From the NCBI GenBank assembly GCA_964415805.1, contig CAYQBQ010000001.1:6641-41722 (forward strand): a stretch of 35,082 bases of DNA. The letters run 5' to 3'. The notes beneath the pieces were generated by a model. That model was not told the origin of the DNA. It saw only the letters and a program-made list of their open reading frames with translations, and searched no databases. A program made the translations under genes and the position numbers. Numbering within the stretch: position 1 is the stretch's first letter; every line of letters starts with the position of its first letter. Of this stretch, positions 10,410 through 16,089 are shown piece after piece. This DNA is from an uncultured Clostridium sp. GTDB lineage: Bacteria > Bacillota > Clostridia > TANB77 > CAG-508.

Positions 10410-11354
10410 ATGAAAAAAATATCAATAATTGTACCAGTATATTATAATCAAGATAATTTATTACCATTATATGCAGATTTAAAGGAAAAGGTACTTAGCA
10501 AAATAAATATAGAATATGAATTAATATTTGTTGATGATGGCTCAAAAGACAAATCATATGAAGTTATGAAAAATTTAGCAAAATTAGATGAAAATATAAA
10601 AACAATAAGATTGTCAAGAAATTTTGGAGAACATTCAGCACTATTAGCAGGTTTGTCACAATGTACAGGAGATTGTGCGGTAAGAAAAGCAGCAGATTTG
10701 CAAGAACCTTCTGAAGTGATATTAGATATGATGAAGAAATATGAAGAAGGAAACAAAGCCGTTTTGGCAGTAAGAGCAGATAGAGAAGAGCCAATTACGC
10801 AAAAGGCATTTTCAAATTTATATGCATTTTTAATGAGAAAATTAGCTCTTCATAATATGCCAAAAGGAGGTTTCGACACTTTTTTGATAGATAGGCAAAT
10901 AATTGATTTATTAGTAAAAATGCAAGAAAAAAACACATCATTAATGAGCCAAATTTTATGGGCGGGTTTTGAAACAGCAACTGTACCATATATAAGAAAA
11001 AAAAGAGAAATAGGAAAATCTAGATGGACATTATCTAAAAAAATAAAATTAGCATATGATTCATTATTAAGCTTTTCATATTTTCCAATAAAAATGATTA
11101 CATCAGTAGGATTTTTAAGTTTCCTTATATCATTAATATTATTAGTTGTAATTATTGGTAAAAAGTTTGCAGGAATTATTGATGTAGAAGGTTATACTTC
11201 AATCATAATGATTATGCTTATGGGTTTTGGAATTATAATGCTTTCAATAGGAGTATTAGGAGAGTATTTATGGAGAACATATGATGCAGCAAGAAGTAGA
11301 CCACCATATATTATAGAAAAAGTGGAAAAAGGAGATAAATCCGAAAATGAATAA
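10410..11354 (+). CDS. GT2 polyprenyl-phosphate glycosyltransferase (ArnC/GtrB/CsbB-like)
   Basis: 314 aa with an N-terminal GT-A domain (IIVPVYYN, FVDDGSKD, RNFGEHSA, DLQEP) plus two C-terminal TM helices. This is the classic ArnC/GtrB layout. Confidence 0.85.
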   Translation: MKKISIIVPVYYNQDNLLPLYADLKEKVLSKINIEYELIFVDDGSKDKSYEVMKNLAKLDENIKTIRLSRNFGEHSALLAGLSQCTGDCAVRKAADLQEPSEVILDMMKKYEEGNKAVLAVRADREEPITQKAFSNLYAFLMRKLALHNMPKGGFDTFLIDRQIIDLLVKMQEKNTSLMSQILWAGFETATVPYIRKKREIGKSRWTLSKKIKLAYDSLLSFSYFPIKMITSVGFLSFLISLILLVVIIGKKFAGIIDVEGYTSIIMIMLMGFGIIMLSIGVLGEYLWRTYDAARSRPPYIIEKVEKGDKSENE

Positions 11355-12693
11355 TATACTTGAAAAATTAAATAAAAATAAAAGAATAATAATATTATTA
11401 TTTTTAATATGCATATTTTGTTATTACTTATTATGGACAGTTTCTGAACCATATAATTCATGCCCAGATGAAGGGATGAAATGGGATATATGCAAATATA
11501 TTTATGAAAATAATAAATTACCACATGGAGAAGAAGAATCAATAAGAAATCAAATGTGGGGAATATCATATGCATTTCAACCTATATTAACGTATACAAT
11601 AGGTGCTATTTTTATGAAAGTTGCATCAGTTTTTTCTACAGAAACATTTACATTATTGATTGCAGCGAGATTAGTTAGTACAATTAGCATGACACTTGTT
11701 GTTTATTTTGCAATAAAAATTTCTCAAAAATTATTTAAAGGGATTTATAAGTATCTGTTCATTGCTTTTATTGCATTTCAACCAATAACAGCATTTCTTG
11801 CGTCATACATAAATAATGATTCAACAGCATTATTAGCATCAACAATAATAATATACTTGTGGATACTAGGATTAGAAAGTAATTGGAAAACAAAACATTG
11901 TATATTATTAGGAATAACAATTGGATTTTGTTTACTTACTTATTATAATGCATATGGATATATATTGTGTAGCATAATAATTTGTTTAATATCAACAATA
12001 TCAAATAAAATGAAAACAAAAGAAATTGTCCAAAAAGCATTAATAGTAATATGCATTGCATTCTTAGTTGCAGGGTGGTGGTTTATAAGAAATGCAATGA
12101 TATATGATGGGGATATTTTAGGAATACAAGCACAAAACGAATGTGGTGACAAATATGCCATGGAAGGATATAAACCATCAACAAGGCCTACAATTCAGAA
12201 TCAAAATATAAGTATTATAGATATGTTGATAAAACAAAAATGGTTGATAATTACAATAAAAGGGTTTGTCGGAGTTTTTGGATATAATCTGATAATTATG
12301 TCAAATAAAATATATATATCTTATTTTATACTATGGTTAATTGGAGCAGTAGGATGTTTAATAAATTTTAAAGATTTATTTATATATAAAAAGAATGAAA
12401 AAAATAGATATTTATTAAATTACATATTTATATTATCAATAATAATTACAATAGCACTAAGCATTTATTATTCATATACTAGTGATTTTCAACCACAAGG
12501 AAGATATATAGTAGGAATAATTATTCCATTTACTTATTTTATTGTAAATGGAATAAGCATAATATTGGAAAAGTTTATAAAATCAGAAAAAATAAGAAAT
12601 ATTATTATTCTAATATTAATATTATTAATAATTATAATTTCAATGAAAGCAATCTTTGGTTATATAATACCAACATATGCCAACGTTGAATAG
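11347..12693 (+). CDS. Polytopic membrane protein, probable GT-C glycosyltransferase (ArnT/PMT_2-like)
   Basis: 448 aa with more than 10 predicted TM segments and a DE-containing first external loop (CPDEGMKW). It overlaps the upstream GT2 gene by 8 nt. The family call is an inference from topology and context. Confidence 0.55.
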   Translation: MNNILEKLNKNKRIIILLFLICIFCYYLLWTVSEPYNSCPDEGMKWDICKYIYENNKLPHGEEESIRNQMWGISYAFQPILTYTIGAIFMKVASVFSTETFTLLIAARLVSTISMTLVVYFAIKISQKLFKGIYKYLFIAFIAFQPITAFLASYINNDSTALLASTIIIYLWILGLESNWKTKHCILLGITIGFCLLTYYNAYGYILCSIIICLISTISNKMKTKEIVQKALIVICIAFLVAGWWFIRNAMIYDGDILGIQAQNECGDKYAMEGYKPSTRPTIQNQNISIIDMLIKQKWLIITIKGFVGVFGYNLIIMSNKIYISYFILWLIGAVGCLINFKDLFIYKKNEKNRYLLNYIFILSIIITIALSIYYSYTSDFQPQGRYIVGIIIPFTYFIVNGISIILEKFIKSEKIRNIIILILILLIIIISMKAIFGYIIPTYANVE

Positions 12694-12710
12694 AAAGAAG
12701 TGTAAAAGAA

Positions 12711-13838
12711 ATGATAGGGTTTAATGTACCAATTTGTATAGATGAGTCAGTTGATTGCATAAAAGAAGCAATTAATAACAGAAAAATATGTGGAGATGGA
12801 GAATTTACAAAAAAATGTAGTAATTGGATGGAAAAAAAATTTAATAGCAACAAAATTTTATTAACAACATCAGGAACTTCAGCATTAGAAATGGCTGCAA
12901 TATTATTAGATATAAAAGATGGAGATGAAGTAATTATGCCGTCATATACATTTGTATCAACAGCAGATGCATTTGTAATGGTAGGAGCAAAAGTTATTTT
13001 TGTAGATGTTAACCCTAAAACAATGAATATAGATGAAAATGAAATAGAAAAAGCAATAACGTCAAAGACAAAAGCAATTGTGGTAGTACATTATGCGGGA
13101 ATTTCACCAGATATGGATAAAATAATGAAAATAGCAAAAGAACATAATTTAAAAGTTGTAGAAGATGCAGCACAAGGATTTATGGCAAAATATAAAGAAA
13201 AGTATCTAGGAACTATAGGAGACCTTGGTTGTTATAGTTTCCATGAAACTAAAAATTATAGTATGGGCGAAGGTGGAGCAATTTCAATTAATGATTCTAA
13301 ATTAATAGAAAGAGCAGAGATAATAAGAGAAAAAGGAACAAATAGAAATAAATTTTTTAGAGGAGAAATAGATAAGTATACATGGGTAGATTATGGTTCA
13401 TCATATTTGCCAAGTGAACTTAATTGTGCATATTTGTATCCTCAATTAAAAAAGGCAGATGAAATAAATAATATAAGATTATCTGCATGGAACTATTATG
13501 CAAATAATTTAAAAGAATTAGAAGAAAAAGGAAAAATAGAAATACAATATCTCCCAGAATATAGCAAACATAATGCACATATGTTTTACATAAAAACAAA
13601 AAATTTAGAGGAAAGAACAGAATTAATAAAATACTTAAAAGAAAATGGAATACAAGCTGTTTTTCATTACATTCCATTACATACGTCGCCTGCAGGAAAG
13701 AAATTTGGAGTATTTCATGGAGAGGATAAGTACACAACTATAGAAAGCGAAAAACTAGTTAGATTACCTATGTATTATGAATTAACAAGAAAAGATCAAG
13801 ATGAGGTAATAAGTAAAATTATAGAATTTTATAAATAA
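12711..13838 (+). CDS. wecE: DegT/DnrJ/EryC1 aminotransferase, closest in motifs to dTDP-4-amino-4,6-dideoxygalactose transaminase (WecE/RffA)
   Basis: 375 aa. Long motif runs match my memory of E. coli WecE: CGDGEFTKKC, DEVIMPSYTFVSTA, VVEDAAQG, FHETKN (PLP lysine), EIIREKGTNR, DKYTW, NAHMFYIK, FHYIPLH. Confidence 0.8.
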   Translation: MIGFNVPICIDESVDCIKEAINNRKICGDGEFTKKCSNWMEKKFNSNKILLTTSGTSALEMAAILLDIKDGDEVIMPSYTFVSTADAFVMVGAKVIFVDVNPKTMNIDENEIEKAITSKTKAIVVVHYAGISPDMDKIMKIAKEHNLKVVEDAAQGFMAKYKEKYLGTIGDLGCYSFHETKNYSMGEGGAISINDSKLIERAEIIREKGTNRNKFFRGEIDKYTWVDYGSSYLPSELNCAYLYPQLKKADEINNIRLSAWNYYANNLKELEEKGKIEIQYLPEYSKHNAHMFYIKTKNLEERTELIKYLKENGIQAVFHYIPLHTSPAGKKFGVFHGEDKYTTIESEKLVRLPMYYELTRKDQDEVISKIIEFYK

Positions 13839-15361: not shown

Positions 15362-15689
15362 ATATATAGTTTTATTAATTTTAGCAGTTCTGGTAAGTTC
15401 CATTTCTCAAATTATATTAAAAAAGAGTGCTTCAAAAACTTACAGTTCAATTTTTAAAGAATATTTTAATGTATATGTTATAACTGGATATGGATTAATG
15501 GTACTTTCTACAGTTCTTGTAGTTTTAGGATTAAAAGGTGTATCATACAAAAATGAACCTATTATTGAATCATTAGGGTATATTTTTGTTATGATTTTAA
15601 GTAATAGAATTTTAGGTGAAAAAATTACAAAAAAGAAAATTTTAGGAAATGCATTAATTTTAATAGGAATATTTTGTTACTATATGTAA
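15348..15689 (+). CDS. Small 4-TM DMT/EamA-type protein (ArnE/ArnF-like flippase subunit)
   Basis: 113 aa with four hydrophobic helices and a 14-nt overlap with the preceding gene. Confidence 0.65.
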   Translation: MKMSKYIVLLILAVLVSSISQIILKKSASKTYSSIFKEYFNVYVITGYGLMVLSTVLVVLGLKGVSYKNEPIIESLGYIFVMILSNRILGEKITKKKILGNALILIGIFCYYM

Positions 15690-15732
15690 TAATTAAAAAA
15701 TGTTAAGATTTAGAAAAGGATGGAACATAAAT

Positions 15733-16089
15733 ATGAAAAAATTTTTAAAAAGTTTTAGATATGCATTTGAAGGAATATTCAGGGGAATAAAAGAAGAACA
15801 AAACATGAAAATACATATAGCGATAATGATATTAGTAATAATATTTGGAATACTGTTAAAAATAAGTAAAATAGAATGGATAATTTGCATTGCATTGTTT
15901 GGACTAGTAATATCAATGGAATTAATAAATACAGCAATAGAAAATACAGTAGATTTAATAACAAAAGAAATAAATGAACAAGCAAAAATTGCAAAAGACG
16001 TTGCTGCAGGAGCTGTATTAGTTTCAGCAATAGCATCAGCTATTATAGGATTAATAATATTTGTACCAAAAGTAATATCAATATTCTAA
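15733..16089 (+). CDS. dgkA: DgkA-family lipid kinase (diacylglycerol/undecaprenol kinase)
   Basis: I prefer the ATG at 15733 (MKKFLKSFRYAFEGI...) because the ATG at 15700 has no RBS. It has 3 TM helices, and the SFRYAFEG and ELINTAIE motifs are typical of Gram-positive DgkA. Confidence 0.85.
   Translation: MKKFLKSFRYAFEGIFRGIKEEQNMKIHIAIMILVIIFGILLKISKIEWIICIALFGLVISMELINTAIENTVDLITKEINEQAKIAKDVAAGAVLVSAIASAIIGLIIFVPKVISIF

Follow-up and report, generated by a model that had tools for sequence, protein, structure and literature searches.

A conserved gene cassette of gut Clostridia predicted to build an N-acylated 4-amino-4,6-dideoxyhexose and attach it outside the membrane

Positions 10410–16089 of a 35,082-nucleotide (nt) stretch of DNA from an uncultured Clostridium sp. 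(assembly GCA_964415805.1, contig CAYQBQ010000001.1, positions 6,641–41,722; the whole stretch is called ‘the window’ here) carry a cluster of genes that probably forms, at a rough probability of 0.6, a self-contained ‘cassette’ for extracytoplasmic glycosylation by way of a lipid-linked, N-acylated 4-amino-4,6-dideoxyhexose. A first-pass annotation, made from the letters of the window alone, had described seven co-directional and tightly packed genes with the logic of the lipid A aminoarabinose (Arn) pathway. That layout was recovered in full, as seven open reading frames (ORFs) on the plus strand spaced by −14 to +24 nt (aa, amino acids; TM, transmembrane segments; GT2 and GT-C, glycosyltransferases of family 2 and of the C fold; PLP, pyridoxal phosphate):

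10410–11354, plus strand: GT2 polyprenyl-phosphate glycosyltransferase of the GtrB/ArnC/PgfS type (PF00535, 83.7 bits)
11347–12693, plus strand: GT-C-fold polytopic membrane glycosyltransferase, 448 aa, ~11 TM (PMT_2, 29.2 bits; cut-off 26.1)
12711–13838, plus strand: WecE orthologue, PLP-dependent dTDP-4-keto-6-deoxy-D-glucose 4-aminotransferase (NF008687, 617.9 bits; cut-off 375)
13863–14978, plus strand: ATP-grasp carboxylate–amine ligase of the L-amino-acid-ligase clade (ATP-grasp_4, PF13535, 87.8 bits)
14993–15361, plus strand: E1, ArnE-like 4-TM half-size DMT/EamA protein (EamA, 27.5 bits; ArnE model, 30 bits, cut-off 92)
15348–15689, plus strand: E2, second ArnE-like half-size DMT/EamA protein (EamA, 36.6 bits; ArnE model, 25 bits, cut-off 92)
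15700–16089, plus strand: DgkA-family lipid kinase, an accessory neighbour (DAGK_prokar, 125.6 bits)

Family identities, operon packing, conserved co-occurrence and gene fusions were all computed directly. In a window of ~26% G+C, the GT2 and GT-C genes overlap by 8 nt and are followed, after 17 nt, by wecE and, after a further 24 nt, by the ATP-grasp gene; E1 starts 14 nt beyond this and overlaps E2 by 14 nt, with dgkA another 10 nt downstream. Purine-rich tracts resembling ribosome-binding sites precede most of the starts and, together with independent gene calls, make ATG 15354 the likely start of E2 (111 aa) and ATG 15733 that of DgkA (118 aa). Identical or near-identical copies of the cluster are present in three independent metagenome assemblies. 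The arrangement is far beyond chance; its order recurs in independent assemblies and in dozens of species.

The transaminase, assigned to the WecE type in the first-pass annotation, is by its sequence a WecE orthologue. Besides passing the NF008687 equivalog it scored 606.6 bits against TIGR02379 (cut-off 434.85) and 499 bits, over the full length, against the Escherichia coli WecE structure 4piw, with the PLP-lysine motif SFHETKN kept; identity to WecE of E. coli MG1655 was 59% over the full length, and similarity 77%. With the ArnB model NF008658 the score was 188 bits (cut-off 631). The product would be a dTDP-4-amino-4,6-dideoxy-hexose, by homology Fuc4N with the galacto configuration, a reading of product and dTDP substrate that is drawn from WecE orthology and from the adjacency of rmlA and rmlB in related loci: rmlA adjoins the cassette in nine loci and rmlB in seven, which speaks for the sugar deriving from dTDP-glucose. 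In the window itself none of rmlA, rmlB, rmlC and rmlD was present among the ORFs, as the first reading had noted for rmlA and rmlB.

Assignment of the fourth gene to the ATP-grasp ligases likewise held. Every named NCBIfam model scored far under its cut-off (BacD 57 bits, cut-off 850; DdaF 50, cut-off 840; PylC 57, cut-off 248) and there was a weak N-terminal match to PurT; by sequence the protein is thus outside the characterised L-amino-acid ligase (Lal) subfamilies BacD, DdaF and PylC. Its best sequence matches in the Protein Data Bank (PDB) were 4dim and the L-amino-acid ligase 3vot (BL00235), at ~105 bits, with BacD at 58 bits, and a Foldseek search with its AlphaFold 2 (AF2) model (pLDDT 84) ranked 4dim, 3vot, RizA and YwfE/BacD ahead of PurK, PurT and PurD. 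Its nearest relatives in both sequence and fold are accordingly Lal enzymes, and the subfamily check that had been proposed for 13863–14978 led to the L-amino-acid-ligase clade. The enzyme is predicted to N-acylate the 4-amino group of the sugar; given its kinship to L-amino-acid ligases, the carboxylate is most likely that of an amino acid.

Gene fusions bear on what the ligase does. WecE and the ATP-grasp protein are joined in single ORFs in three species (L023, L065 and L071 among the loci described below) and, within a large protein collection, in at least 25 protein clusters, and a fusion of the ATP-grasp protein to E1 (P0357), in the order GT2, GT-C, WecE, fusion, E2, was found in independent samples. 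ORFs of 502 aa with the first ArnE-like membrane protein at the C terminus of the ATP-grasp protein lie at 8001–9509 of L084 and 1363–2871 of L085, from different samples. A sister cassette (L086, 8001–11331) consists of a WecE–EamA fusion (P0293), a second EamA half, a GNAT acyltransferase in the slot of the ATP-grasp protein and a 319-aa GtrB-type GT2, with TagF-like and TagD-like genes coming next; the GNAT had no detectable likeness to WecD. L086 appears to be an acetyl- or acyl-CoA version of the same system for acylated Fuc4N on undecaprenyl phosphate (Und-P), set inside a teichoic-acid-type cluster. The presence of a GNAT in the ATP-grasp slot is the strongest computational argument for the ligase N-acylating the WecE product. 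Both kinds of ligase fusion and the GNAT replacement support N-acylation of the 4-amino group before transfer to Und-P; that the ligase might acylate this group had been suggested in the first-pass annotation.

The remaining members would carry the sugar to and across the membrane. Full-length matches to GtrB and ArnC, with a C-terminal TM pair, bore out the reading of the GT2 as ArnC/GtrB-like. Among NCBIfam models the best was Streptococcus mutans PgfS (205 bits), with ArnC at 169.5 bits (cut-off 529), both full-length and both below equivalog level; among PDB structures, full-length matches were obtained to GtrB (5ekp, an Und-P-glucose synthase, 180 bits) and to ArnC (9hwj, 9bhc and 8vxh, 141–146 bits). 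Identity to E. coli ArnC is 29% over 323 columns. The two C-terminal helices (~230–248 and ~259–277) are typical of polyprenyl-phosphate glycosyltransferases. Judged by these scores the protein is an enzyme of the same type as ArnC and not an ArnC orthologue, with an Und-P-linked sugar as its predicted product.

E1, in which four hydrophobic segments are predicted, and E2 are products of adjacent, overlapping genes, 111–122 aa long and remotely similar to each other (30% over 43 aa). An ArnE/ArnF-like pair had been proposed, and profile comparisons favour the ArnE half of that proposal: in hhalign comparisons with E. coli ArnE, the E1 family profile reached a probability of 95.5% (E 1.5e-8) and that of E2 88.5% over 103 columns, whereas matches to ArnF were much weaker for both (46% for E1). 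Neither protein is of the GtrA or Wzx kind, since both match EamA and ArnE and not GtrA (PF04138); GtrA genes are present in some distant loci only. From this homology E1 and E2 are predicted to form a heterodimeric flippase for the Und-P-sugar.

The 448-aa membrane protein, which lacks a large extracytoplasmic domain, had been proposed as an analogue of ArnT. Its homologues carry PMT_2 (PF13231) or DUF2142 (PF09913), and the motif P40-D41-E42 after the first TM segment is invariant across its family. With its AF2 model (pLDDT 58, pTM 0.62) as a Foldseek query against the PDB, the top 20 matches were all GT-C enzymes (probability 1.0, TMq 0.34–0.50), AglB, STT3, DPY19, ArnT, AftA, PglB and ALG12 among them. 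Searches with the sequence returned zero matches in NCBIfam and zero in the PDB, and hhalign against E. coli ArnT gave an insignificant probability of 0.4%, so that the analogy survives as a shared GT-C fold and fails as sequence kinship. Profile and structural searches of 11347–12693 thus point to a GT-C protein rather than to an O-antigen polymerase, a flippase-type protein or something unrelated. The protein is predicted, partly from this model, to take the sugar off Und-P and pass it to an acceptor outside the cytoplasm. Two features of three-component glycosylation systems are thereby present: a GT2 with a C-terminal TM pair, of the type that charges polyprenyl phosphate, and, encoded together with it, a GT-C protein whose PMT_2 match exceeds the gathering score.

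When a one-genome-per-species collection was scanned with an ATP-grasp alignment, relatives proved to be encoded in at least 541 stretches, of which 80 loci were kept. Neighbours, identified by ORF-level blastp and clustering, were counted within 6 kb of the ATP-grasp gene in the 56 loci having at least 5 kb on each flank. WecE and the GT2 were each present in 54/56 loci, E2 in 52/56 and E1 in 49/56 (an undercount arising from the ORF filter); a polytopic membrane protein was present in 52/56, and a PMT_2-like GT-C specifically in 39/56. The core across the kept loci comprises WecE, ATP-grasp, E1, E2 and GT2, with the E1/E2 pair 3′ of the ATP-grasp gene in most loci. In the neighbourhood check across Firmicutes that had been suggested at the outset, the ATP-grasp gene was therefore found to be kept with its cluster. 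In other loci the GT-C slot holds YfhO, DUF2142, DUF6020, DUF6056 or unannotated proteins of 9–13 TM. This variation of the GT-C partner suggests a constant donor-making module paired with acceptor-specific transferases.

Kept loci come from Clostridia and some Bacilli, including Lachnospiraceae (Roseburia, Laedolimicola, Hespellia), Acutalibacteraceae and Christensenellales, and from many uncultured gut metagenome-assembled genomes (MAGs) of human, sheep, rabbit and mouse. Cultured carriers include Roseburia amylophila, Hespellia stercorisuis DSM 15480, Anaerosacchariphilus hominis NSJ-68 and a pair of species of Laedolimicola. Two Lachnospiraceae-type cassettes were labelled Prevotella sp. 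CAG:279 (L043) and Alistipes onderdonkii (L053), which are probably mis-binned contigs and not Bacteroidota carriers. A scan of viral contigs with the same alignment found no relative, which makes a phage seroconversion module unlikely.

The pathway that these identities suggest would run in six steps. RmlA and RmlB, presumably encoded elsewhere in the genome, would supply dTDP-4-keto-6-deoxy-glucose, which the WecE orthologue would transaminate to dTDP-Fuc4N. The ATP-grasp enzyme would then convert a free carboxylate to an acyl phosphate and join it through an amide bond to the 4-amino group, which would also pull the transamination forward. The GtrB/ArnC-type GT2 would load the acylated sugar on Und-P, the heterodimer of ArnE-like 4-TM proteins would flip it, and the GT-C protein would attach it, outside the membrane, to a wall or teichoic-acid-like polymer, to a glycolipid or to a protein. 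Here we infer the ligase substrate, the order of acylation and lipid loading, the acyl group, the flippase activity and the acceptor. As the cluster contains no deacylase, the acyl group probably persists, unlike the situation with aminoarabinose (Ara4N), and a positive charge, if there is any, would come from a free α-amino group.

Several points weigh against this pathway. No characterised enzyme shares more than 23% identity with the ligase, so that its substrates cannot be read from its sequence, and the GT-C model, at pLDDT 58, is of low confidence. We know of no precedent for a dTDP-sugar as donor to a GtrB/ArnC-type GT2. The source organism's own rmlA and rmlB were not located, in a search that covered the window. 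One locus (L032) has ATP-grasp, E1 and E2 beside rmlD and rmlA with WecE, GT2 and GT-C not nearby, two others (L006 and L012) have no local E1/E2, and the ATP-grasp–E1 fusion fits acylation at the Und-P-linked stage equally well.

A more specific form of the proposal makes the ATP-grasp protein an enzyme type not recognised before, a ‘nucleotide-sugar amine : amino acid ligase’ widespread in gut Firmicutes and in many cases fused to WecE, that would build an aminoacylated and hence cationic or zwitterionic Fuc4N. The sugar would travel on Und-P, by way of an ArnE-like flippase and then of GT-C proteins that are interchangeable, to wall or teichoic polymers or to proteins. This is put forward tentatively, with odds somewhat against it. 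A rival reading, for which the odds are longer still, keeps the same architecture and has the enzyme use free formate or acetate to add a formyl or acetyl group, in the manner of PurT, so that a neutral Fuc4NFo or Fuc4NAc would serve ordinary side-chain glycosylation. That the amino-acid ligases are followed, in the structural ranking, by PurT, PurK and PurD, and that PurT is weakly matched at the N terminus, are both in keeping with a simple acyl group, as is the GNAT of L086, which implies that a simple N-acyl suffices; two acetate-kinase paralogues just upstream of WecE in L074 and L077 point the same way, although these may be unrelated neighbours. Yet the closest matches of the ATP-grasp protein, in sequence and in fold, are L-amino-acid ligases, and an ATP-grasp enzyme would be an unusual choice for acetylation when acetyl-CoA-dependent GNATs are cheap and widespread.

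It is improbable, more so than a simple acyl group, that the ligase takes its turn once the GT2 has acted, at the cytoplasmic face of the membrane and with Und-P-Fuc4N as substrate, or that the carboxylate it couples to the sugar amine is a larger one, for instance a peptide or uronic acid. Such a role would account for the adjacency of ATP-grasp, E1 and E2, the tightest among the loci, for their persistence together in L032 without the other genes, and for an ATP-grasp–E1 fusion that tethers the ligase to the membrane. But a WecE–EamA fusion also exists, so membrane tethering does not fix the substrate; WecE–ATP-grasp fusions are the more numerous, and WecE must act on a soluble nucleotide sugar; and in the Arn pathway, the established analogy for an ArnC-type enzyme, N-acylation precedes lipid transfer. 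A conventional pathway linked to undecaprenyl diphosphate (Und-PP), for a capsule, wall teichoic acid or O-antigen-like polysaccharide, with the 448-aa protein as polymerase or ligase and the small proteins as unrelated efflux transporters, is very improbable: WecE does normally serve the Und-PP-linked synthesis of enterobacterial common antigen (ECA), many distant loci do lie inside larger glycopolymer clusters (extra GT2s, LtaS-like, GDPD, CotH, TagF-like) and drug exporters do occur among EamA/SMR relatives, but domain scans of the window revealed no phosphoglycosyltransferase, Wzx, Wzy or ABC exporter adjoining the cluster, the GT2 is specifically of the GtrB/ArnC type with its C-terminal TM pair, the 448-aa protein matches GT-C transferases only, and the E1/E2 pair, which matches ArnE, occurs in fusions with enzymes of the pathway.

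Read as a lipid-linked, N-acylated Fuc4N system, the cassette works like Arn and like Gtr/CsbB–YfhO and is a member of neither; the likeness in logic drawn at first does not extend to family membership. It would share with Arn a 4-aminotransferase acting on a nucleotide 4-keto sugar, N-acylation, an ArnC-type GT2 making an Und-P-sugar, a small 4-TM pair as flippase, here homologous to ArnE, and a GT-C protein outside the membrane. It differs in having WecE and not ArnB, which implies dTDP-6-deoxyhexose chemistry rather than that of a UDP-pentose, in a GT-C protein unrelated in sequence to ArnT (GT83), and in an ATP-grasp enzyme in the place of the formyltransferase with no deacylase. The absence of the ArnA/ArnD pair, remarked on in the first-pass annotation, was borne out by domain scans, with neither domain found in the cluster genes or the other scanned ORFs of the window. 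Nor could the acceptor be lipid A, the host being a Clostridia bacterium: to our knowledge, Clostridia have no lipid A acceptor.

Three-component systems (GtrABC, CsbB–GtcA–YfhO, GacI–L, Csd and Pgf) likewise bring a small flippase together with a GtrB-type GT2 and a GT-C protein, and relatives of the cassette use YfhO, DUF2142 or PMT_2-like GT-C proteins. Unlike them, the cassette brings its own sugar-tailoring enzymes, WecE and ATP-grasp, and an ArnE-like heterodimer; the Gram-positive systems known so far use common UDP-sugars (Glc, Gal, GlcNAc), and the flippases listed for them are only GtrA or Wzx (PMC8035078). The Fuc4NAc branch of ECA synthesis in Enterobacterales (RffH/RffG–WecE–WecD) has a WecE 59% identical to that of the cassette and also acylates dTDP-Fuc4N after transamination, but by the acetyl-CoA-dependent WecD rather than an ATP-grasp enzyme, and the ECA sugar passes through WecF onto Und-PP-linked lipid II, whereas that of the cassette would pass to Und-P through the GT2. 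Domain scans of the window found none of wecA, wecB, wecC, wecF, rffM/wecG, wzxE, wzyE and wzzE. The L-amino-acid ligases BacD/YwfE, RizA and BL00235 are closest to the ATP-grasp protein in fold and sequence, at ≤23% identity, and differ in using an amino acid as nucleophile where the cassette enzyme would use a sugar amine. Amide-linked Gly, Ala, Ser and Thr occur on amino sugars of E. coli O antigens (PMC7685785).

Full-text literature searches recovered no description of a system combining WecE, ATP-grasp and GT2/GT-C, in agreement with the earlier statement that no characterised Und-P-linked version was known in Firmicutes; a Clostridium butyricum dTDP-Fuc4N capsule cluster and papers on Lipocone, SugarBase and 7-deazapurines were followed as leads and proved unrelated. 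It is well supported that the cassette is a conserved system, and it is probably a variant of three-component extracytoplasmic glycosylation not described in the literature searched. Surface glycopolymers are almost uncharacterised in the dominant gut Clostridia (Lachnospiraceae, Acutalibacteraceae and small-genome uncultured lineages), and a cassette carried by hundreds of species-level genomes predicts a specific surface decoration together with a new ATP-grasp reaction. It would also extend ArnE-like flippases and Arn-type logic to Gram-positives, a group for which discussion of flippases has been confined to GtrA and Wzx. Were the acyl group an amino acid, positive charge would be added to the envelope, with a bearing on antimicrobial-peptide resistance, on phage adsorption and receptors, and on immune signalling and recognition of commensals; aminoacylated Fuc4N would then correspond in function, among Gram-positives, to lipid A aminoarabinosylation and to D-alanylation. 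Since several cultured carriers exist, experiments are feasible.

Lineages differ in what they add to the core. Many Lachnospiraceae-type loci (for example L079, 8965–9981, and L066, 9814–11882) have an extended SDR (short-chain dehydrogenase/reductase) of ~335 aa between WecE and ATP-grasp, which is absent from the window; RmlB was ruled out as its identity (80–98 bits against a cut-off of 365), and it also missed the GalE cut-off. Some of these loci add a second, N-terminally short DegT-like protein of ~343 aa, and the two additions suggest further sugar tailoring in those lineages. Second, divergent ATP-grasp paralogues (25–34% identical), which might attach one more acyl or aminoacyl group, are present in the same clusters in L060 (3881–5083) and L083 (5556–6764). 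In five loci (L036, L049, L053, L054 and L059, ~1000–19000) the Lachnospiraceae cassette lies inside a larger conserved block, with two or three paralogous ~590-aa 9-TM proteins matching no Pfam family, DUF6020, an LtaS-like sulfatase-domain protein, GDPD, GtrA and CotH kinase-like proteins; the block may be a locus for a teichoic-acid-like polymer that supplies the acceptor. In the closest MAG of the genome collection (L004, ATP-grasp 97% identical), WecE at 9154–9968 is fragmented, with frame changes and with residues 19–50 and 214–278 missing, reflecting either pathway decay or assembly error.

DgkA had been counted as part of the system, as the enzyme phosphorylating the lipid carrier. Its family assignment was upheld, with ~37 bits against E. 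coli DgkA structures in addition to the DAGK_prokar match, and its membership was not: a dgkA gene adjoins the cassette in the closest clade only (downstream in L002–L005, upstream of the GT2 in L013 and L015) and is absent elsewhere. This distribution marks it as a putative lineage-specific add-on rather than a core member, possibly an undecaprenol kinase.

A promoter scan of the window was uninformative, with fewer promoter-like sites than in shuffled sequences, and the sole terminator-like site lies on the minus strand at 16150–16174. The genes on both flanks of the cluster are housekeeping or unrelated ones: upstream are those for ArgRS, FtsY, UPF0182, TyrRS, an amylase and TrhA/HlyIII, and downstream those for a pentapeptide-repeat protein, a broken thioredoxin reductase (TrxR), thioredoxin, DUF4153, PBP2, a two-component system and a MacB-like ABC pump. 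The pentapeptide-repeat protein (16175–16813, TTG start) follows the cluster directly and is kept beside it in L002–L005. The broken TrxR gene (16857–17714) matches the 289-aa TrxR of L013 across frames 3, 1, 2 and 3; a 210-aa ORF at 16857–17489 is its truncated remnant, with the same 210-aa call in the independent contig L003, and the thioredoxin gene that comes after it (17735–18040) is intact. Further downstream, 24092–31220 encodes a response regulator, a histidine kinase, a histidine phosphatase, a HipA_C-like protein and an ABC ATPase, then an 858-aa FtsX/MacB-type permease and a YkuD L,D-transpeptidase, and may represent a module for sensing and detoxifying peptide antibiotics near the envelope-modification cluster.

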